Assembly: GCF_965641715.1 (NCBI RefSeq)
Contig: NZ_OZ282453.1
DNA: 64,000 nt
Source: Escherichia coli
GTDB taxonomy: Bacteria > Pseudomonadota > Gammaproteobacteria > Enterobacterales > Enterobacteriaceae
Direction: 5' to 3' (one strand)
Shown one piece after another: positions 3,182-58,353 of the stretch. Under the pieces are notes generated by a model that saw only the letters and a list, made by a program, of their open reading frames with translations, was not told where the DNA came from and searched no databases. Numbering within the stretch: the first letter of the stretch is position 1; each line of letters opens with the position of its first letter. A program made the translations under genes and the position numbers.

Positions 3182-6100
3182 TGTCGCCGAGACACTAGAT
3201 CCTTTGCGCTTGCCCTTACAGGGCGAGCGCCTGATTGAAGCCTCTGCCGGCACAGGCAAAACCTTTACGATTGCGGCGCTCTATTTGCGCCTGTTACTTG
3301 GACTAGGCGGTTCCGCCGCCTTTCCCCGCCCGCTGACCGTTGAAGAACTGCTGGTGGTCACCTTTACCGAGGCTGCCACGGCAGAATTGCGTGGTCGTAT
3401 CCGTAGCAATATCCATGAGTTGCGCATCGCCTGTCTGCGTGAAACCACCGACAATCCACTGTACGAACGTCTGCTGGAAGAGATCGACGATAAAGCGCAA
3501 GCCGCGAAGTGGTTGTTGTTAGCCGAACGGCAGATGGATGAAGCGGCAGTCTTTACTATTCACGGTTTTTGCCAGCGCATGCTCAACCTGAATGCCTTTG
3601 AATCCGGCATGCTGTTTGAGCAGCAGCTGATTGAAGATGAGTCTCTGCTACGTTACCAGGCCTGCGCCGATTTCTGGCGTCGCCACTGCTACCCGCTGCC
3701 GCGTGAAATAGCCCAGGTCGTCTTTGAAACCTGGAAAGGGCCGCAGGCGTTGCTGCGCGATATTAATCGTTATCTGCAAGGTGAAGCGCCGGTTATCAAA
3801 GCACCGCCGCCCGATGATGAAACGCTGGCTTCCCGTCACGCGCAAATTGTGGCGCGTATTGATACGGTAAAACAGCAGTGGCGCGACGCAGTGGGTGAAC
3901 TGGATGCGCTGATCGAATCTTCTGGTATTGATCGACGCAAGTTTAACCGTAGCAATCAGGCTAAATGGATCGACAAGATCAGCGCCTGGGCAGAAGAAGA
4001 GACAAACAGTTATCAGTTGCCGGAGTCGCTGGAAAAATTCTCCCAGCGTTTCTTAGAAGATCGCACGAAAGCCGGGGGGGAAACCCCGCGACATCCACTG
4101 TTTGAGGCGATCGATCAACTGCTTGCAGAACCATTGTCGATCCGCGATCTGGTGATCACCCGTGCATTGGCTGAGATCCGCGAAACAGTAGCGCGTGAAA
4201 AACGCCGCCGTGGCGAATTGGGTTTTGATGACATGTTAAGTCGGCTCGATTCCGCGCTGCGTAGCGAAAGCGGTGAGGTGTTGGCAGCGGCGATCCGTAC
4301 GCGATTCCCGGTGGCAATGATCGATGAATTTCAGGATACCGACCCCCAGCAGTACCGAATTTTTCGCCGTATCTGGCACCATCAGCCGGAAACCGCATTG
4401 TTGCTAATTGGCGACCCGAAGCAGGCCATATATGCATTCCGGGGTGCGGATATCTTCACTTATATGAAGGCGCGTAGCGAAGTTCACGCCCACTACACTT
4501 TAGACACCAACTGGCGTTCCGCACCAGGAATGGTGAACAGCGTGAACAAGCTTTTCAGACAGACTGATGACGCGTTCATGTTTCGCGAAATACCGTTTAT
4601 TCCAGTGAAATCAGCCGGGAAAAATCAGGCGTTACGTTTTGTCTTTAAAGGTGAAACGCAGCCTGCGATGAAAATGTGGCTGATGGAAGGCGAAAGCTGC
4701 GGCGTTGGCGATTATCAAAGTACCATGGCGCAGGTATGTGCTGCGCAAATCCGCGACTGGCTACAAGCCGGACAGCGGGGCGAAGCGTTGCTGATGAACG
4801 GCGACGACGCGCGTCCGGTGCGTGCTTCGGACATCAGTGTGCTGGTGCGCAGCCGCCAGGAGGCCGCCCAGGTGCGCGATGCCTTAACGTTGCTGGAAAT
4901 CCCTTCCGTTTACCTTTCGAACCGCGACAGTGTTTTTGAAACTCTGGAAGCGCAGGAAATGCTTTGGTTGTTGCAGGCGGTGATGACGCCCGAACGTGAG
5001 AACACCCTGCGCAGTGCGCTGGCAACGTCAATGATGGGGCTGAATGCGCTGGATATTGAAACGCTGAACAATGACGAACATGCGGGGGATGCGGTAGTTG
5101 AAGAGTTCGATGGTTATCGGCAAATCTGGCGCAAACGTGGCGTTATGCCGATGCTGCGGGCGCTGATGTCGGCGCGTAACATTGCAGAAAACTTGCTGGC
5201 AACGGCAGGCGGTGAGCGGCGTCTTACCGATATCTTGCATATCAGCGAACTGCTTCAAGAAGCCGGAACGCAGCTGGAAAGTGAACATGCGCTGGTACGC
5301 TGGTTATCGCAACATATCCTCGAGCCAGACAGTAATGCCTCCAGCCAACAAATGCGCCTCGAAAGTGATAAACATCTGGTACAGATTGTCACGATCCATA
5401 AATCAAAAGGGCTGGAATATCCGCTTGTCTGGTTGCCATTTATTACCAATTTCCGCGTCCAGGATCAGGCGTTTTATCACGATCGCCACTCGTTTGAGGC
5501 TGTTCTGGATCTTAACGCTGCGCCAGAAAGTGTCGATCTCGCGGAGGCCGAACGTCTGGCGGAAGATCTGCGTTTGCTTTACGTGGCGCTGACGCGTTCG
5601 GTTTGGCATTGTAGTCTCGGCGTTGCACCGCTGGTGCGCCGTCGTGGCGATAAAAAAGGTGACACCGACGTCCACCAAAGTGCGCTCGGGCGTTTGCTGC
5701 AAAAAGGGGAACCGCAAGATGCGGCAGGGCTTCGCACCTGTATTGAAGCGTTATGCGATGATGATATTGCCTGGCAAACGGCACAAACTGGTGATAACCA
5801 GCCCTGGCAGGTTAATGATGCTTTAACTGCAGAACTGAATGCGAGGACGCTACAACGATTGCCCGGCGATAACTGGCGTGTCACCAGCTACTCCGGCTTG
5901 CAGCAGCGTGGTCACGGTATCGCTCAGGATCTGATGCCACGGCTGGATGTTGATGCCGCAGGCGTGGTCAGCGTCGTTGAAGAACCGACGTTAACACCGC
6001 ATCAGTTCCCGCGCGGTGCGTCACCGGGGACATTCTTGCACAGTTTGTTTGAAGACCTCGATTTTACCCAGCCGGTTGACCCGAACTGGGTACAGGAAAA

Positions 6101-51221: not shown

Positions 51222-52535
<1,314 letters not shown>

Positions 52536-52554
52536 GACTGACTTTATCTGATTT

Positions 52555-52586
52555 AAAAATGCCAGCCTCCGGGCTGGCGTTTTTTA
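52555..52586. terminator. Bidirectional intrinsic terminator shared by eno (+) and the convergent TPM/LemA operon (-)
   Basis: aaaaat-gccagcc-tccg-ggctggc-gttttttat: GC stem flanked by an A-run and a T-run. Confidence 0.75.
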
Positions 52587-52594
52587 TGGTTGAG

Positions 52595-53488
52595 TTACCA
52601 GCGACCGGACGCGCCGCCACCGCCAGAAGAACCGCCCCCGCCGCTAAATCCGCCGCCACTTGAGCCTCCACCGGAAGAGGATGAAGAAGAACCTTTTCTT
52701 GAAGCTCTATCTTTACTGAGTTTTTTGTATTTGGCGCGTAGCTTTTTATTGACGATAAGCCAAAAAATAACCAGTGGTACGATCGCAAAAGGCGTTAACA
52801 TACCGCAGGCAACGATTAAATTGGTCCATGGTCCTGGCTCGGCAACATAGAGGAATACCATCCCGTAAATGGCGCCAGTGAGAGTGATCCAGGGTAAATT
52901 CGACGGATCGGTAAAAACAATAAAATATGAAAGTACCGCCAGCAATATAATTACAGCAAGCGATAATGGAATAGGGGGATTGATACTGTAATAATCCCCC
53001 CTGTCTTCCGGTAATTCACCATTCAACAGAAGCGCGCCGATATTTTCGCTTGCCAGTGTTAATCCACCCATCAGGTCGTCACTTTTGAAGGCAGGGATCA
53101 ATATATCCCTGATAATCTTCGCCGCTTGCAGGTCGGTTACCACCCCTTCCAGCCCGTAGCCAACCTCAATACGAACAGCATGATCCTCCCTGGCAACCAG
53201 AAGTAAAATACCATCGTTTCTCTGCTTATCTCCCAGTTTCCAGCTATCAAAAACCCTTGTAGCATATTGTTCAATGGAATCGTCTCCGGTGGACGGCACT
53301 ACTAATACAGCGACCTGCGCCCGTGTTTTATGTGTAATATCCTGCAGTTGCTGTGTCAGTGATTGTTGTTCAGACGTGCTTAACGTACCAGTAATATCGG
53401 TCACCTGTTGGCGCAGCTCCGGCACAGCAATTTGCTGGGCAAGCCCGGGAAGGCTCCACAAAGCAAGTAGAATAAAGATTAAGCGCAT
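52595..53488 (-). CDS. TPM-domain membrane protein, YgcG family, paralog 1 (promoter-distal)
   Basis: ORF track 52595-53500 begins at a non-ATG codon; likely ATG start at MRLIFILLALWSLPGLA (signal peptide); TPM fold motifs (LVVPSTGDDSIEQYATRVFDSWK, DGILLLVA, RIEVGYGLEG); C-terminal TM segments then Ser/Gly tail ...GGGSSGGGGASGRW. Confidence 0.8.
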   Translation of the reverse strand: MRLIFILLALWSLPGLAQQIAVPELRQQVTDITGTLSTSEQQSLTQQLQDITHKTRAQVAVLVVPSTGDDSIEQYATRVFDSWKLGDKQRNDGILLLVAREDHAVRIEVGYGLEGVVTDLQAAKIIRDILIPAFKSDDLMGGLTLASENIGALLLNGELPEDRGDYYSINPPIPLSLAVIILLAVLSYFIVFTDPSNLPWITLTGAIYGMVFLYVAEPGPWTNLIVACGMLTPFAIVPLVIFWLIVNKKLRAKYKKLSKDRASRKGSSSSSSGGGSSGGGFSGGGGSSGGGGASGRW

Positions 53489-53493
53489 TACGA

Positions 53494-54642
53494 TCACCAA
53501 CGGCCGGATGAACCGCCGCCTCCTGAAGAACCGCCACCACCGCGGAAAGAATTCCTCGACGAAGAGCGAGAATGAGCATTACGATTCCCCGTTTTCCTGT
53601 TGCTTTTTTCTCCTGACCCCAGCTTAAGATTGCCAGTAAATTTGGCCACAATGATCAGCAGAACGATGCCAGCAATGGTTATTGGGCCGATAAAATGATC
53701 AATTAACCCAATAATTGTTGAGATGAATGCAATATCTTTATTACTGGCGAACACCAGGCACCATCCCACAATAATTATCAGCATCACGACAAACAATGAA
53801 TTTCGTCCTGATTCACGAACCTGCGGAGTCTTCTTTTGTTTTTTCACTTTAGCGTTTTTATTTTTTGGGGCCAGCATCATAGGAAATACGCGGCACAAAT
53901 TAAAAACTACCGCGAGACGCTGCTTGCAGGTTGTTGCTAACAATAAACTAAAACAAACGACCGATACCCGCCGAATGATGACATCGTCCTGAAAGGAGAA
54001 AAACCAGACCATAGGGGTAATCATCGATATCATCCATATGCCACGCCGTGGGCGGCTGGCAAATCGCCAGAGGACAACGATGGCAACGATCATCAGCAGT
54101 GTCCAGGCAAGACATGGCAGCGAACGTTGCGGATTAGCAAACAGATGATTGGCTAAAGCATCCAAAGGGCTAAGGTTCGCTTTGATATGGGTAAACTGTG
54201 CGATGCTTTCAATTCCGCCCGTTAATCCAGCAAAGAGATTGTTTTTTTCGAATTCTGGCTGCATATGGTAACGAACAATTTGCGCAGCTTGTTCCGGCGG
54301 CAACATCTCTTCCAGTCCATGTCCAATCTTCATTGACGCCAGCCCTTCCGGCCATACGACGAGAATTAAGATACCTTCGCCATATCGCTTCTCTCCAACG
54401 GGTTTCCAGTGATATACCCCGTATCTCTGCGAGGCTGCAAGTTTAATGTTTTTGCCCCCTGTGGTCGGCGTAACCAACACGGCCACCTGGAAGTGGTTTT
54501 GCTGCTCGAGAGTCTGTAATTGTTGAGTTAAAGCAGTTTGTTCTTCTGTCGTTAATGTCCCGGTTAAGTCAGTCACTGAAGGCAATCGTTCAGCGAATAC
54601 CTGAAAACCGCATAGCATCAGAAGTAAGAGAAAAATACGCAT
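53494..54642 (-). CDS. TPM-domain membrane protein, divergent paralog 2 with long polytopic C-terminal region
   Basis: 382 aa; signal peptide; TPM-like N-terminal domain; several hydrophobic segments; tail ...RGGGGSSGGGGSSGRW; 5-nt gap to paralog 1 start. Confidence 0.75.
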   Translation of the reverse strand: MRIFLLLLMLCGFQVFAERLPSVTDLTGTLTTEEQTALTQQLQTLEQQNHFQVAVLVTPTTGGKNIKLAASQRYGVYHWKPVGEKRYGEGILILVVWPEGLASMKIGHGLEEMLPPEQAAQIVRYHMQPEFEKNNLFAGLTGGIESIAQFTHIKANLSPLDALANHLFANPQRSLPCLAWTLLMIVAIVVLWRFASRPRRGIWMISMITPMVWFFSFQDDVIIRRVSVVCFSLLLATTCKQRLAVVFNLCRVFPMMLAPKNKNAKVKKQKKTPQVRESGRNSLFVVMLIIIVGWCLVFASNKDIAFISTIIGLIDHFIGPITIAGIVLLIIVAKFTGNLKLGSGEKSNRKTGNRNAHSRSSSRNSFRGGGGSSGGGGSSGRW

Positions 54643-54656
54643 ATCAATTCCTTTTG

Positions 54657-55550
54657 TTACCAGCGCCCGGAAGCGCCACCGCCACCAGATGAACCGCCAC
54701 CACCGCTGAAATTGTCATTGTTGAATGAAGAGGATGACGATGATGAATAGTGGGAGGAAGAATTGCTTCTTGTATGGCGTGATGGCTGGTTGACATCACG
54801 CATCAAATCCCGAACTTTTTTGCCGAAGGGGGTAAAAGCGATGGCGACAGCCAGGAACGGTGTGGCGAAGCAGAGTAATGTTGCGAGTACTCCCCAGCTT
54901 CCGCTGAAGCCTGCTATAGGTAAAACAAAGGCCAGTACAATAGCTGCGAAGCAAATTACTCCCAGCGTTTTGATATATCCTCTGGCAGAAATAAACGTCA
55001 GTACTATCGCCCAGACTAACAATGCCCACCAACCGCTAAAGGGCAAAGGGTGATCGGTCGGTGTTATCGTTGCTAAATTATTCCCCGTAAGACGACTTTC
55101 AATATCGCTGATCCCCTTTTGTAAACCGCCAGCCAGGTCGCCTTTTTTAAATGCAGGAATAATACTGTTGCGAATAATTTTCCCGGACTGTGCATCCGTA
55201 ATAATACCTTCCAGCCCGTAACCGATTTCAATACGCACGGTATGATCCTGCCAGGCGACTAACAGTAGAACGCCATCATCACGGTCTTTATCACCCGGTT
55301 TCCAGCTATCGAATACCCGCGTTGCGTACTGCTCGATGGTTTCATCGCCTGTTGTATCAACCACTAACACGACCAACTGTGCGTGGTTTTTTTGCGTCAG
55401 GGCTTTAATCTGGTTGGTCAGGGTGTTTACTTCGCTGTTTGTTAATGTGCCGGTTAAGTCATTCACATACTTGGGGGATTCAGGTACTGGAATTTGTGTG
55501 GCAAACACAGATGAACAGAAGAAAGCCATAAGGAAGATAAAATTTCGCAT
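54657..55550 (-). CDS. TPM-domain membrane protein, YgcG family, paralog 3
   Basis: ORF track 54657-55580; likely start at MRNFIFLMAFFCSSVFA (55550); shares IEQYATRVFDSWK and RIEIGYGLEG blocks with paralog 1; tail ...SGGGGSSGGGGASGRW. Confidence 0.8.
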   Translation of the reverse strand: MRNFIFLMAFFCSSVFATQIPVPESPKYVNDLTGTLTNSEVNTLTNQIKALTQKNHAQLVVLVVDTTGDETIEQYATRVFDSWKPGDKDRDDGVLLLVAWQDHTVRIEIGYGLEGIITDAQSGKIIRNSIIPAFKKGDLAGGLQKGISDIESRLTGNNLATITPTDHPLPFSGWWALLVWAIVLTFISARGYIKTLGVICFAAIVLAFVLPIAGFSGSWGVLATLLCFATPFLAVAIAFTPFGKKVRDLMRDVNQPSRHTRSNSSSHYSSSSSSSFNNDNFSGGGGSSGGGGASGRW

Positions 55551-55563
55551 AGAACTTCCCCGC

Positions 55564-56184
55564 TTAATGAGCATTAGCATTCTGGCTAAAATCTATTGTT
55601 GGGGCTTTACTTACTGCGGCGACATCATCCGGTAAATAATTTTTCTTTGGCGTGTAATCCATGACCTTTGCGGTTAATACAGCGGGGAATTTGCGGATAG
55701 TGACATTATATTGTTCAATGGCTTTAATATATCTTCCTCGCGCAACGGCAATTCTATTTTCACTTCCTTCGAGCTGTACCATTAAGTTTTGATAGAGCTC
55801 TTGAGCCTTTAACTCAGGGTAACGCTCACTAATTATCGTTAACTGACCGAGAGTGCGAGTCACCTGCGCCTGGGCCTGTTGCCAGGCTTGTAATTTTTGT
55901 GCATCTCCGGGAGCTTGCTGAAGATCGCTGCTGGCGCGATTAGCCTGGCTACGAGCCAATGTTACGGCTTCCAAAACGTCTTTTTCATGGTTGGAATAAC
56001 CTTTAATACTGGCGACAAGATTAGGAATAAGATCGGCGCGACGTTGATATTGATTTAATACCTCAGACCAGGAGGCGTTAACCTGCTCATCATAGGTTTG
56101 AATATCGTTATATCCACAGCCTGATAAATTGAAAATAAATATAATTACGATGAATATCCTGAGCATGTTTAAATCCTTTTTCAT
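55564..56184 (-). CDS. lemA: LemA-family lipoprotein
   Basis: 206 aa; lipobox NLSGC; LemA blocks QRRADLIPNLV, ERYPELKA, GSENRIAVARGRY; stop lies 13 nt upstream of TPM paralog 3 start. Confidence 0.8.
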   Translation of the reverse strand: MKKDLNMLRIFIVIIFIFNLSGCGYNDIQTYDEQVNASWSEVLNQYQRRADLIPNLVASIKGYSNHEKDVLEAVTLARSQANRASSDLQQAPGDAQKLQAWQQAQAQVTRTLGQLTIISERYPELKAQELYQNLMVQLEGSENRIAVARGRYIKAIEQYNVTIRKFPAVLTAKVMDYTPKKNYLPDDVAAVSKAPTIDFSQNANAH

Positions 56185-56338
56185 TAATTCCTTAAAACAT
56201 AATACGCCGCTTCATTTTATTCTTTATGATCTAATGCACTTTTTGCCTTAAACCTGCCTGTAACAGAATGTTAATAAGACATGATTGTTGCGGCAGGATC
56301 TGCAATAATTAACAATTATCCACTTCACAGAGAATGCT

Positions 56339-57010
56339 ATGCAGTACCCGATTAACGAGATGTTCCAGACCCTGCAAGGTGAGGGTTACTTTACCGGCGT
56401 CCCCGCCATTTTTATTCGTTTACAGGGATGCCCGGTTGGCTGTGCCTGGTGCGACACCAAACACACCTGGGAAAAGCTTGAGGATCGGGAAGTCTCCCTT
56501 TTCAGCATTCTGGCGAAGACCAAAGAGAGTGATAAGTGGGGGGCGGCGAGCAGTGAAGACTTGTTGGCTGTCATTAGTCGCCAGGGATACACCGCGCGGC
56601 ATGTGGTGATTACGGGTGGTGAGCCTTGCATTCATGATTTGCTACCACTGACTGATCTGCTCGAAAAGAACGGTTTTAGCTGCCAGATCGAGACCAGTGG
56701 TACTCATGAGGTACGCTGTACACCGAATACCTGGGTTACCGTATCGCCAAAGCTGAACATGCGCGGCGGCTATGAAGTGTTGTCACAGGCACTGGAGCGA
56801 GCCAACGAAATCAAGCACCCAGTGGGACGCGTACGTGATATTGAAGCACTGGATGAACTTTTGGCGACGCTGACCGATGATAAACCGCGAGTCATTGCAC
56901 TGCAGCCGATTAGCCAAAAGGATGATGCCACACGTTTGTGCATTGAAACCTGCATTGCGCGTAATTGGCGTTTGTCGATGCAAACCCATAAATATTTAAA
57001 TATTGCCTGA
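56339..57010 (+). CDS. queE: 7-carboxy-7-deazaguanine synthase (radical SAM)
   Basis: 223 aa with CPVGCAWC cluster motif; recognised as QueE/YgcF. Confidence 0.9.
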   Translation: MQYPINEMFQTLQGEGYFTGVPAIFIRLQGCPVGCAWCDTKHTWEKLEDREVSLFSILAKTKESDKWGAASSEDLLAVISRQGYTARHVVITGGEPCIHDLLPLTDLLEKNGFSCQIETSGTHEVRCTPNTWVTVSPKLNMRGGYEVLSQALERANEIKHPVGRVRDIEALDELLATLTDDKPRVIALQPISQKDDATRLCIETCIARNWRLSMQTHKYLNIA

Positions 57011-57149
57011 TTAAACATTTATAAGCGTTATAAATGGGTGGAACCTGTGAAGACTTCTACTCATTTATATTCTTTGTCGTCTCTGAAAAACATCCATTTT
57101 GCCCATCCTGAACTAATCATTATCATTCTCTACAAATTCTGTGGCGTTA

Positions 57150-57348
57150 ATTTTTCGTTGGAGTGAAAATTATTGCGGTAAAGTTTGGTAGATTTTAGTT
57201 TGTATAGAGTTATTTTAAATATTTACCTTTTTAATCAATGGGTTAAGTGCTCTTTAACATAATGGATGTGTTGTTTGTGTGATACTGTAAAGTTGGTAGA
57301 TTGTGACTGGCTTAAAAAATCATTAATTAATAATAGGTTATGTTTAGA
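57150..57348 (+). promoter_or_regulatory. CRISPR leader (AT-rich, promoter and integration-host-factor region)
   Basis: AT-rich stretch ending ...tggtagattgtgactggcttaaaaaatcattaattaataataggttatgtttaga immediately 5' of the first repeat. Confidence 0.65.
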
Positions 57349-58353
57349 GAGTTCCCCGCGCCAGCGGGGATAAACCGGGCGACCGGCAGGCGGCCTATGC
57401 GTTTTTCACGAGTTCCCCGCGCCAGCGGGGATAAACCGGGGCATTAGAATAACTTAAATGGAAAAAGAAAGAGTTCCCCGCGCCAGCGGGGATAAACCGG
57501 CCTTATCTCTGCTTGGATTCTCTGCTGATGTGAGTTCCCCGCGCCAGCGGGGATAAACCGCGGCGCACACGTTGTATTTGTGCTGCCTATGCGAGTTCCC
57601 CGCGCCAGCGGGGATAAACCGCCCACCAGCGCGTTTTTTGCCGGGGCCATAGTGAGTTCCCCGCGCCAGCGGGGATAAACCGGCAATGCTCGTACGCCGT
57701 CTCACTCCGCGTGAGAGTTCCCCGCGCCAGCGGGGATAAACCGCGGGGGCGCGGGGTGTGGACGCATTCACAGCAGAGTTCCCCGCGCCAGCGGGGATAA
57801 ACCGTATATGCAGTGCTGACAGACCGGGGGGCGCAAGAGTTCCCCGCGCCAGCGGGGATAAACCGGCAACGCAGGAACCGCAGGCGGTTCGTCATCTGAG
57901 TTCCCCGCGCCAGCGGGGATAAACCGCTTGCCGCGCCAGGGTATTTTTGTGTGGTCGTGAGTTCCCCGCGCCAGCGGGGATAAACCGTCCGCAACAACTC
58001 AGAGAACCAGACACCAAGCGAGTTCCCCGCGCCAGCGGGGATAAACCGTTTCGCCGCCGGGAAAATTTATATTAACGTTGGAGTTCCCCGCGCCAGCGGG
58101 GATAAACCGCGAAGCACGTCGGGGACCGTAAGGCGTTTGAAGAGTTCCCCGCGCCAGCGGGGATAAACCGCAATCCACGCCGAAGCGCTGGAAATGGAAA
58201 AAGAGTTCCCCGCGCCAGCGGGGATAAACCGTTTACCTGCTCGGTGATATCGTCCTGCAAATCGAGTTCCCCGCGCCAGCGGGGATAAACCGGGTACAAA
58301 AGAGGCCCCATTCTGGCAGGGCTCAAGTTCCCCGCGCCAGCGGGGATAAACCA
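57349..58353 (+). CRISPR. Type I-E CRISPR array: 17 repeats of 29 bp, 16 spacers of 32 bp
   Basis: Repeat GAGTTCCCCGCGCCAGCGGGGATAAACCG with exact 61-bp period from 57349; terminal repeat degenerate (AAGTTCCCCGCGCCAGCGGGGATAAACCA, 58325-58353); leader at the 57349 end sets + orientation. Confidence 0.97.

Follow-up and report, generated by a model that had tools for sequence, protein, structure and literature searches.

Among the described systems closest to the proteins reported here is YgcG of Escherichia coli K-12 (b2778), which lies in the same slot between eno and queE and likewise has a signal peptide, a TPM domain, membrane helices, a basic stretch, and a Gly/Ser tail. Its last 19 residues are identical (GGFSGGGGSSGGGGASGRW), and the DNA of its tail and downstream flank is near-identical to that of tpm1, one of the genes described below. 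Unlike the window, by which we mean the whole 64,000-nucleotide stretch of E. coli DNA analysed (contig NZ_OZ282453.1, assembly GCF_965641715.1), K-12 carries a single divergent allele without further paralogs and with yqcG replacing lemA. The four-gene form of the window is present in around 20% of complete E. coli genomes.

By structure, the TPM domain comes closest to BA41 of Bizionia argentinensis (5ANP), with 34% identity and a target-normalised TM-score of 0.89–0.91. BA41 was reportedly described by Cerutti et al. in 2017 as crossing the membrane once, its TPM domain lying outside the cytoplasm and its low-complexity C-terminal region on the cytoplasmic side, and it is the isolated TPM domain, not the tail, that is said to have been solved and assayed in that study, with ATPase/ADPase activity. 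Its neighbour BA42 (4OA3, 2LT2) is a stand-alone TPM protein. The layout described for BA41 is that of the E. coli TPM proteins, which, however, have at least three membrane helices and lack a partner gene of the BA42 kind.

Psb32 (TLP18.3), which serves in photosystem II assembly and repair, shares the TPM fold, which faces the lumen and is held at the membrane by a C-terminal anchor, but it has no Gly-rich extension, and E. coli has no photosystem. The LemA family (PF04011), which includes MamQ of magnetosomes, supplies the neighbour of the tailed TPM protein and itself has no tail. In the single-stranded DNA-binding protein SSB, a disordered Gly-rich linker carries a conserved tip (…DDDIPF), of which the partners recognise the last aromatic residue and the free carboxylate. 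The likeness to SSB, a variable tether with a fixed tip, is a functional analogy only, with no sequence kinship. The tip of SSB is acidic and soluble; that of the TPM proteins is rich in glycine, neutral or basic, and belongs to a membrane protein.

A glycine-rich extension of TPM proteins has already received brief mention in the literature. Our literature search turned up no account of the motif or of what it does, and the strings GGGGASG, GGGASGRW, and GGGASGSW led to no relevant paper.

Gene organization of the locus

According to the ORF listing, three minus-strand TPM-domain genes lie 3′ of lemA between eno and queE (Table 1). The true start of tpm1 is likely the ATG at 53488 (MRLIF…), and that of tpm3 likely lies at 55550 (MRNFIF…). 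In the Pfam profile search, all three proteins matched PF04536 over profile positions 1–124, with 131.2 bits for tpm1 (residues 33–156), 76.6 bits for tpm2, and 140.7 bits for tpm3 against a gathering cut-off of 22.1 bits, and the conserved D, E, and GYGLEG positions of the domain are present. The three proteins are ordinary, already annotated members of this family, in which phosphatase or nucleotidase activity has been reported for some members. They fall outside the Psb32 equivalog NF047379 (32.1 and 34.3 bits against a cut-off of 160, with no match for tpm2), and a match to the YxzE-like bacteriocin family PF25184 was rejected as a composition effect (23–24 bits against a cut-off of 40).

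The sequence of tpm1 opens with a signal-peptide-like N-terminus, and its three hydrophobic segments lead on to a basic stretch and then to the Gly/Ser tail. Overall identity to tpm1 is 34% for tpm2 and 47% for tpm3, and the membrane region is hardly alignable. The lemA product has a lipoprotein signal with the lipobox …FNLSGC|GYN, and the start LSGCGYN recurs in the LemA genes of related loci. The terminator-like hairpin past tpm1 probably marks the end of a lemA-tpm3-tpm2-tpm1 operon.

Table 1. Coordinates of genes, tail motifs, and repeats in the window
Feature	Position	Strand	Description
lemA	55564..56184	-	First gene of the operon; LemA family, PF04011 at 165.5 bits
tpm3	54657..55580	-	307-aa ORF; TPM paralog
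tpm2	53494..54642	-	382 aa; divergent TPM paralog with a longer membrane region
tpm1	52595..53500	-	301-aa ORF; predicted TPM-domain inner-membrane protein
tpm3 terminal motif	54660..54710	-	FSGGGGSSGGGGASGRW; D1 copy 3
tpm2 terminal motif	53497..53547	-	FRGGGGSSGGGGSSGRW; D1 copy 2
tpm1 terminal motif	52598..52648	-	FSGGGGSSGGGGASGRW; last 17 codons; D1 copy 1
Direct repeat D1, tpm3 end	54656..54710		55 nt
Direct repeat D1, tpm2 end	53493..53547		55 nt
Direct repeat D1, tpm1 end	52594..52648		55 nt
16-nt identical run	53528..53543	.	GAACCGCCACCACCGC (+ strand sequence); in the tpm2 tail; natural tpm2-deletion crossover site
Partner copy of the 16-nt run	54691..54706	.	In the tpm3 tail
Terminator-like hairpin	52561..52578	-	17 nt past the tpm1 stop; 7-bp stem with 6 GC pairs, then ATTTTTAAAT

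Conservation of the C-terminal tail

The initial annotation of this locus had proposed that all three TPM paralogs end in a Gly/Ser tail terminating in -SGRW after a basic stretch, and the ORF translations confirmed this. The three C-termini share the ending F-x-GGGGSSGGGG-[A/S]-SGRW, and the basic stretch between the last hydrophobic segment and the tail reads NKKLRAKYKKLSKDRASRK in tpm1, KSNRKTGNRNAHSR in tpm2, and GKKVRDLMRDVNQPSRHTR in tpm3. The range first given for the tails, 52595–54740, covers tpm1 and tpm2 but just the 3′ end of tpm3. As had also been proposed, the tail is kept in both the close paralogs (tpm1 and tpm3) and the divergent tpm2, with 15–17 of the last 17 residues identical against an overall identity of 34–47%, a similarity far in excess of chance. 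Within the last 15 codons, paralog pairs differ at 8–9 third positions, at 0–1 first positions, and at no second position, with 0–1 amino-acid changes. The synonymous sites of the tails are therefore near saturation while the peptide is invariant, and the tail is clearly subject to strong purifying selection on the protein.

To place this ending in its family, a TPM-domain query without the tail was used, which returned 22,991 representative matches (clusters at 50% identity), of which the best 150 were examined. Among these, 113 end in W. In a C-anchored profile of 112 representatives, G occupies seven of the eight block positions in 104–112 sequences and position −15 in 95, followed by A or S at −5, S at −4 (110), G at −3 (96), and W at −1 (109). 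The penultimate residue is free (R 41, S 37, G 16, K 7, D 5, N 5). The Gly/Ser-rich segment varies in length from 24 to 92 residues, with the tip fixed relative to the C-terminus. Nearly all complete genes retrieved with the GYGLEG pattern from 80 species genomes, which span alpha-, beta-, and gamma-proteobacteria, Bacteroidota, and Spirochaetales, and thus three phyla, end in GGGGASGxW.

From the 112 representatives, the 80 genomes, and 110 metagenome genes, a consensus of the form [F/Y/W]-[S/G]-GGGG-x-[S/F]-GGGG-[A/S]-S-G-x-W-COOH was derived, of which -SGRW is the E. coli form within the YgcG-type (COG1512) family. A Gly-rich extension with this terminal motif is carried by tpm1–3 and by K-12 YgcG. 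The suggestion that a terminal GRW is conserved therefore holds for W, which is near-invariant (109/112), but not for R, which varies, so that the conserved unit is GGGG-x-[S/F]-GGGG-[A/S]-S-G-x-W. The further claim, that the tail reflects a shared signal under selection instead of neutral low complexity, was borne out by the near-saturated synonymous sites and by the motif being fixed in distant homologues, the TPM-domain retrieval showing that other genera, classes, and phyla keep it in a fixed register.

When metagenomes were scanned with a DNA pattern of the tail, 109 of the 123 matches lay inside TPM ORFs and the remainder were mostly fragments. The motif is thus confined almost wholly to TPM proteins and the genes next to them. 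A protein query with the 42-aa tail returned just E. coli fragments, owing to low complexity and database size, and is uninformative on other families.

Predicted topology and operon context

By prediction, the window proteins are laid out as YgcG-type proteins are: they have a signal peptide, the TPM domain lies outside, the membrane helices are odd in number, and a basic stretch adjoins the membrane. Homologues have one or three hydrophobic segments, and in one of them a zinc ribbon separates the membrane helix from the tail. Because of the signal peptides, the one or three membrane helices, and the basic stretch, we infer that the tail lies in the cytoplasm, whereas the TPM domain and the LemA lipoprotein lie across the inner membrane in the periplasm. 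LemA was rejected as the cytoplasmic partner of the tail, since its lipoprotein signal would make it periplasmic.

Of 80 genome loci, 72 have a LemA gene before the tailed TPM gene, as do 69 of 97 metagenome loci. The window shows this arrangement too, with lemA directly upstream and on the same strand, as in lemA-TPM-TPM operons. A signal-less TPM gene of around 165 aa comes next after the tailed gene in around 65 of the 80 genome loci; among pooled loci, the count is 107 of 169. This stand-alone TPM protein, encoded in around 60–80% of related operons, is a candidate cytoplasmic receptor of the tail. Phe at −10 was found in 82 of 107 tails with a stand-alone TPM gene and in 28 of 62 without one (Fisher p = 5e-5), an association that is uncorrected for phylogeny and confounded by it. 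Many two-gene operons of lemA and a tailed TPM gene retain the motif, and therefore the stand-alone protein cannot be the universal receptor.

In the window, no ORF of this kind was present, a profile of the stand-alone type matching two of the three tailed genes weakly, and its place after the first tailed gene is taken by two further tailed paralogs. A limited protein search for stand-alone TPM proteins in Enterobacteria returned just close relatives of the query, from Oceanisphaera and Alcaligenaceae. The stand-alone TPM protein is likely absent from E. coli.

Structure prediction

Of the three paralogs, tpm3 was modelled with AF2, both full-length (mean pLDDT 80.6) and with the TPM domain deleted. 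The TPM domain adopts the alpha/beta TPM fold with a pLDDT of 92–98, and in Foldseek it matched 5ANP, 7TBR, 2KW7, 4OA3, 3PVH, and 8C7I with E-values of 1e-11 to 4e-5. Helices were predicted at residues 173–189, 193–212, and 218–239, followed by an amphipathic basic helix. In the full-length model, the linker at residues 254–280 has a pLDDT below 50, while the tip reaches around 94 and DSSP assigns a strand at 288–296. Without the TPM domain, the pLDDT of the tip falls to around 50 and the strand is gone. These strand assignments, together with the deletion control, suggest that the motif may be complementary to a TPM fold. Since the topology proposed above sets the tail and the TPM domain of one molecule on opposite sides of the membrane, contact between them within that molecule would be impossible. 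Docking of the tail on its own periplasmic TPM domain in the AF2 model could be an artefact.

Recombination between the gene ends

The gene ends had been described as similar GC-rich direct repeats that might mediate recombination between the paralogs, and both parts of this description hold. The ends form the 55-nt direct-repeat family D1, whose copies are 75–84% identical with a GC content of 62–72%. The longest shared runs are 11–16 nt across the pairs, the 16-nt run between the tpm2 and tpm3 tails being the longest exact identity between any two tails. Ten complete O157:H7 genomes lack tpm2 and carry a tpm3-tail/tpm2-tail deletion junction exactly as predicted; in E. coli FORC_044, the switch from tpm3-type to tpm2-type sequence falls inside the 16-nt run. 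No tpm3/tpm1 or tpm2/tpm1 tail junction was found among 5,426 genomes. A further 336 genomes matched 92% of the tpm3/tpm1 query, but they carry a different haplotype that aligned in two pieces and were rejected as junctions. The conserved coding repeats, as a by-product, supply enough identity for rare deletions between paralogs.

Discussion

The initial annotation had left open whether the tail serves sorting, protease recognition, or partner docking, and the evidence leans toward docking. The tail combines a disordered tether of variable length (24–92 residues) with a conserved tip of fixed position. Numbered with the terminal residue as 0, positions 0, −2, −3, and −4 appear fixed and −1 free, a pattern that fits C-terminal peptide recognition. 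We tentatively propose that the tail, with its family-wide motif, is a tethered docking peptide in the cytoplasm, a reading that the tpm3 models favour and that we put somewhat below an even chance. A flexible leash would present the short motif, which may be recognised via its glycine backbone and the carboxylate of the terminal Trp, and contact with the partner would probably be made by β-strand addition. The only cytoplasmic TPM fold on offer would be the stand-alone protein encoded directly downstream in related operons. Since E. coli seems to have no such gene, its tails would need another receptor, or they have another or an additional role.

As a broader proposal, TPM folds might be receptors for Gly-rich C-terminal peptides and the lemA-TPM module a trans-membrane device, which we consider rather unlikely. 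Such a device would comprise a periplasmic LemA/TPM head, a membrane link, and a cytoplasmic leash, whose tip would insert as a β-strand into the soluble TPM protein or, in E. coli, into a different receptor.

Alternatively, the tail might control turnover, either with the terminal Trp motif as a degron for an AAA+ protease of the cytoplasm or membrane (FtsH, ClpXP, Lon) or with the poly-glycine as a "slippery" tract that prevents extraction of the protein from the membrane. FtsH requires a cytoplasmic flexible tail of more than 20 residues for initiation on a membrane protein, and Gly-rich tracts weaken the grip of AAA+ unfoldases. The TPM tail is flexible, longer than 20 residues, and by its probable topology cytoplasmic, and its free C-terminus is a conserved anchor point as in ssrA-type degrons. 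However, turnover does not account for two Gly blocks of exactly four residues, the fixed A/S-S-G, and the aromatic residues at −10 and −17, nor for the ordered, TPM-dependent strand in the AF2 model, and restriction to one protein family would be unusual in a general protease tag. We therefore judge this explanation unlikely.

The aromatic residues could instead act at the membrane interface, with F at −17, F at −10, and W at −1 lying together with the basic stretch on the inner leaflet, where they would report or stabilise lipid packing. Their regular spacing amid glycine agrees with such a role, as do the operons that other TPM proteins share with the membrane-stress proteins PspA and band-7, and the recurrent mutations at the tail start of a Cupriavidus YgcG-family protein under salt and metal selection. 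This role is nevertheless quite unlikely, considering that position −10 is Ser, not an aromatic residue, in E. coli and around 40% of homologues, that an interfacial anchor needs neither an invariant A/S-S-G nor a constant register to the carboxylate, and that the TPM-deleted AF2 model shows no packing of the tail against the helices.

Clustering of LemA and TPM proteins by stickers and spacers, that is, by aromatic-glycine contacts or intermolecular β-structure, would suit the low-complexity aromatic-glycine composition, the GGGF/GGGS repeats upstream of the tip in many homologues, and the three tailed paralogs in one E. coli operon. Such systems allow register and composition to change, but the motif is position-specific up to the last residue, which makes this explanation improbable.

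Very improbable is an origin without selection on the protein, whether because the paralogs recently duplicated or underwent gene conversion, because low-complexity sequence drifted neutrally, or because the DNA or RNA itself acts as a terminator, a ribosome-binding site for the following gene, or a recombination site: despite the GC-rich direct repeats, the one natural deletion through them, and GGAGG-like strings in the glycine codons, the DNA copies are only 75–84% identical with almost all differences synonymous, the peptide is conserved across phyla, and the single terminator-like hairpin stands after tpm1. The synonymous-site differences and the shared runs of just 11–16 nt exclude gene conversion and nucleotide-level constraint, and Shine-Dalgarno, terminator, and gene-conversion origins of the repeat were rejected on the synonymous pattern and the hairpin position.

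The structural polymorphism of the eno-queE region in E. coli is partly explained by these results, including the tail-to-tail deletion in an O157:H7 lineage. TPM/YgcG proteins, together with LemA, are among the most widespread uncharacterised bacterial envelope proteins (around 23,000 clusters at 50% identity), and outside the TPM domain the tail, which no curated model covers, is their most strictly conserved part. With a precise motif, a probable cytoplasmic placement, and a predicted complementarity to the TPM fold, the role of the tail becomes directly testable. If the broader proposal of a trans-membrane device is true, the state of the envelope would be coupled to a cytoplasmic partner, and the motif would represent a class of C-terminal docking signals that is new and widespread in bacteria.

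Gene organization and predicted topology

In the window, a stretch of E. coli chromosome, pyrG and eno on the plus strand were followed by four minus-strand genes and then by queE. RefSeq names three of the four "TPM domain-containing protein" and the remaining one "LemA family protein". For tpm1 and tpm3, the longest ORFs open at TTG or ATG upstream of likelier starts (53488-53500 and 55550-55580), and these likelier starts, MRLIF… and MRNFIF…, are typical signal-peptide beginnings. The extended tpm1 ORF is overlapped by the stop of tpm2, and the extended tpm3 ORF by that of lemA. Downstream of queE, past an AT-rich stretch, lay a CRISPR array (repeat GAGTTCCCCGCGCCAGCGGGGATAAACCG, spacing ~61 nt); a CRISPR is annotated at the equivalent place in K-12.

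Features in and around the eno-queE interval (window coordinates)
Feature	Position	Strand	Remarks
eno-queE interval	52500-56340		
tpm1	52595-53500	-	TPM domain, Pfam match well above cut-off
tpm2	53494-54642	-	TPM domain, Pfam match well above cut-off
tpm3	54657-55580	-	TPM domain, Pfam match well above cut-off
lemA	55564-56184	-	Pfam family match well above cut-off
AT-rich stretch	~56950-57400		
CRISPR array	57471-58171 and beyond		

Signal-peptide-like N-termini were present in all three TPM proteins, and in the AlphaFold2 (AF2) model of tpm3, a basic amphipathic helix came after helices at 173-189, 193-212, and 218-239. Among the homologues, one or three hydrophobic segments separated the TPM domain from the tail, always with basic residues behind them. 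These features predict an outside location for the TPM domain and a cytoplasmic tail. Psb32, whose TPM domain is lumenal, agrees with the outside location, and BA41 reportedly has an extracytoplasmic TPM domain and a cytoplasmic C-terminal region, as predicted here. Architectural variants that kept the tail (P0033, P0004, P0009, P0013, P0015, and others) included proteins with two tandem TPM domains ahead of the membrane segment and one homologue with a CPKC…CSAC zinc ribbon between membrane helix and tail. A preprint on Cupriavidus necator H16 evolved in the laboratory under metal and salt stress describes recurrent G253W and W253G substitutions in its YgcG-family protein; by count, residue 253 in the Cupriavidus loci L031 and L010 lies just past the last membrane helix, where the glycine-rich tail begins.

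Selection on the shared tail

The three paralogs ended in FSGGGGSSGGGGASGRW, FRGGGGSSGGGGSSGRW, and FSGGGGSSGGGGASGRW, each tail being preceded by a basic stretch behind the last hydrophobic segment, so that the initial annotation of a Gly/Ser tail with a terminal -SGRW was confirmed as written from the ORF sequences. Overall identity to tpm1 was 34% for tpm2 and 47% for tpm3, with a hardly alignable membrane region; the last 17 residues were near-identical among the three, and the same last 19 residues occurred in ygcG, the divergent K-12 allele. At the DNA level, the gene ends formed a 55-nt direct-repeat family with 75-84% identity. Within the last 15 codons, paralog pairs had 8-9 third-position differences, at most one first-position and no second-position difference, and the sole amino acid change was A/S at -5. 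Synonymous sites thus appear close to saturated with a frozen peptide, which indicates selection of the tail at the peptide level and rules out recent duplication and gene conversion as well as any nucleotide-level constraint. In E. albertii NBRC 107761 (locus L003, 4960-4982), the middle paralog tpm2 ended in …GGGGASGR, with the Trp codon TGG changed to TAG; this loss of a near-invariant residue could have come about through relaxed constraint or be an error in sequencing.

Family-wide conservation of the motif

To avoid circularity, the tail was left out of the query, and the tpm3 signal peptide plus TPM domain was searched against 1.84 billion cluster representatives, yielding 22,991 matches at E ≤ 1e-3. 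A terminal W was found in 113 of the 150 best matches (pairwise identity at most 50%), and most of the other proteins among these 150 were short or had an unrelated ending, which suggests fragments or frameshifts. A C-anchored profile was built from 112 of the 150.

C-anchored profile of the tail, numbered back from the C-terminus (n = 112)
Position	Residues
-17	F/Y/W, 76/112
-16	S/G
-15 to -12	GGGG, 95-112 of 112
-11	variable
-10	S 60 or F 48
-9 to -6	GGGG, 105-112 of 112
-5	A 96 or S 16
-4	S 110/112
-3	G 96/112
-2	variable: R 41, S 37, G 16, K 7, D 5, N 5
-1	W 109, F 2, Y 1

The proposed conservation of a terminal GRW therefore held for the W but not for the R, and "GRW" is a local spelling. 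The Gly/Ser-rich segment ahead of the motif ranged from 24 to 92 residues in this set. A fixed register behind a variable leash does not look like a product of low-complexity drift; together with the codon pattern in E. coli, it upholds the earlier proposal of selection rather than neutral low complexity.

A one-genome-per-species scan with the TPM-domain pattern GYGLEG gave 80 loci in gamma-, beta-, and alpha-proteobacteria, Bacteroidota, and Spirochaetales, where GGGGASGxW ended nearly every complete gene. In the reverse test, metagenome contigs were scanned for the DNA pattern of GGGG-A-S-G-x-W-stop, and 109 of the 123 matches (120 loci) lay inside TPM-domain ORFs, the remainder being mostly contig-end or frameshift fragments. 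On these counts, the motif appears specific to one family and not a general tag. Four small membrane proteins of 107-152 aa (loci L099, L107, L130, and L140) carried the tail without a TPM domain and consisted only of one to three membrane segments, the basic stretch, and the full motif; in L099 and L130, the gene adjoined a tailed TPM gene. On the minus strand of locus L179, an unrelated 543-aa secreted protein with a signal peptide and no TPM match ended in …EGGQSGGGGASGSW (in the reverse-complemented locus, the match starts 3,191 bases in). It had only the last half of the motif, without a preceding membrane helix, and may represent chance or independent use.

Operon context

The lemA gene lay directly upstream of the tailed gene in 72/80 genome loci and 69/97 evaluable metagenome loci, and a stand-alone TPM gene, detected with a dedicated profile, lay directly downstream in about 65/80 genome loci and 107/169 loci pooled with the metagenome set, all of these being lower bounds with ORF calls made here and profiles from proteobacterial sequences. 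LemA carried the lipoprotein signal …LSGC|GYN in the window and related loci alike, which places it in the periplasm by prediction, on the same side as the TPM domain. The stand-alone TPM protein (~165 aa, conserved C-terminus NELPDRPVxL) had no signal peptide or membrane segment and is thus presumably cytoplasmic; it would be the only TPM fold in the predicted compartment of the tail. Its start overlapped or abutted the stop of the tailed gene (L010, L021, L031, L033, L071, and other loci; about 4770-5330), an arrangement that suggests translational coupling. F at -10 was found in 82/107 tails with a stand-alone TPM downstream versus 28/62 without (Fisher p = 5e-5, loci counted regardless of phylogeny). 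With the dedicated profile, the stand-alone TPM was absent from the E. coli and E. albertii loci, which had three tailed paralogs instead, and many other operons comprised lemA and the tailed gene only.

Structure prediction

The mean pLDDT of tpm3, modelled in AF2 with a 78-sequence alignment, was 80.6. Values were below 50 in the linker (254-280), as would be expected of a disordered leash, and reached ~94 in the last ten residues, with a strand assigned at 288-296; all other strands of the model belonged to the TPM sheet. When the signal peptide and TPM domain were deleted, in a control drawn from the same family, the tail had a pLDDT of ~50 and no strand. AF2 thus seems to add the motif to the TPM domain as a further strand, a contact deduced from the secondary-structure assignments and the deletion control. 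Such contact in cis would be impossible, because the two parts are predicted on opposite sides of the membrane, so the ordering may be artefactual or may mean that motif and TPM fold are complementary.

Recombination between the tails

Exact identity between tails extended to 11-16 nt at most, which is short for RecA-dependent exchange. The three possible tail-to-tail deletion junctions were built and searched in 5,426 complete E. coli genomes. Ten of them contained the tpm3/tpm2 junction, matched in one piece over 604 nt at 100% coverage and 97.8% identity, and the eight listed included four labelled O157:H7 and one O157; no tpm2/tpm1 or tpm3/tpm1 junction was found in this set. In FORC_044 (L203, 2700-3010), the switch from tpm3-type to tpm2-type sequence fell inside the 16-nt identical run GCGGTGGTGGCGGTTC, with tpm2 (1,163 bp) removed. 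The suggestion that the GC-rich 3′ repeats could mediate recombination between paralogs was thereby borne out, the deletion probably being a single inherited event. This strain also carried a TTA-to-TGA nonsense mutation in tpm3, leaving a 234-aa ORF, and a G-to-V change at -3 of the chimeric tail, which would fit a gene already decaying. Recombination between tails is a side effect of peptide conservation.

The eno-queE interval (L001 and L002) was polymorphic in E. coli. The lemA-tpm3-tpm2-tpm1 form was present in 1,102 of the 5,426 genomes, a second form, in which lemA is accompanied by a TPM pseudogene truncated at its C-terminus and by an unrelated membrane ORF of 121 aa, in about 336, and the K-12 form (ygcG and the small gene yqcG) in most of the rest. 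From eno onward, K-12 and the window were near-identical across the terminator and the final ~27 codons of tpm1/ygcG; homology broke off abruptly around position 52676 (tpm1 codon about -27), at the upstream boundary of the glycine-rich tail, a possible old crossover point.

Possible function of the tail

We tentatively favor a tethered docking peptide, a reading to which we give somewhat less than even chances. The variable-length leash would present the C-terminal motif to a partner as a bound strand, and the stand-alone TPM would be the candidate cytoplasmic receptor in taxa that have it. Docking is favored because conservation is anchored on the free C-terminus, leash length varies, the motif is specific to one family, AF2 ordering depends on the TPM domain, and the pattern of fixed positions 0, -2, -3, and -4 with -1 free (last residue = 0) fits a bound strand. 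Its main weakness is that the motif is kept in E. coli and in two-gene operons without the candidate receptor. The exact GGGG-x-x-GGGG-A-S-G-x-W register is explained less well by a degradation or anti-degradation signal, which we regard as unlikely, and the same applies to a membrane-interface anchor, which is rather improbable. Self-association through the tail accounts for this register less well than docking too and is the least probable of these readings.

The terminal motif had no model in Pfam or NCBIfam among the profile matches of the window proteins, and in the open-access literature we found no paper defining the motif, its register, or the terminal Trp, or giving a function. Both the genes and the presence of an extension were already known; new here are the motif-level definition, the evidence of selection, the predicted compartment, the AF2 lead toward a TPM fold, and the natural deletion.
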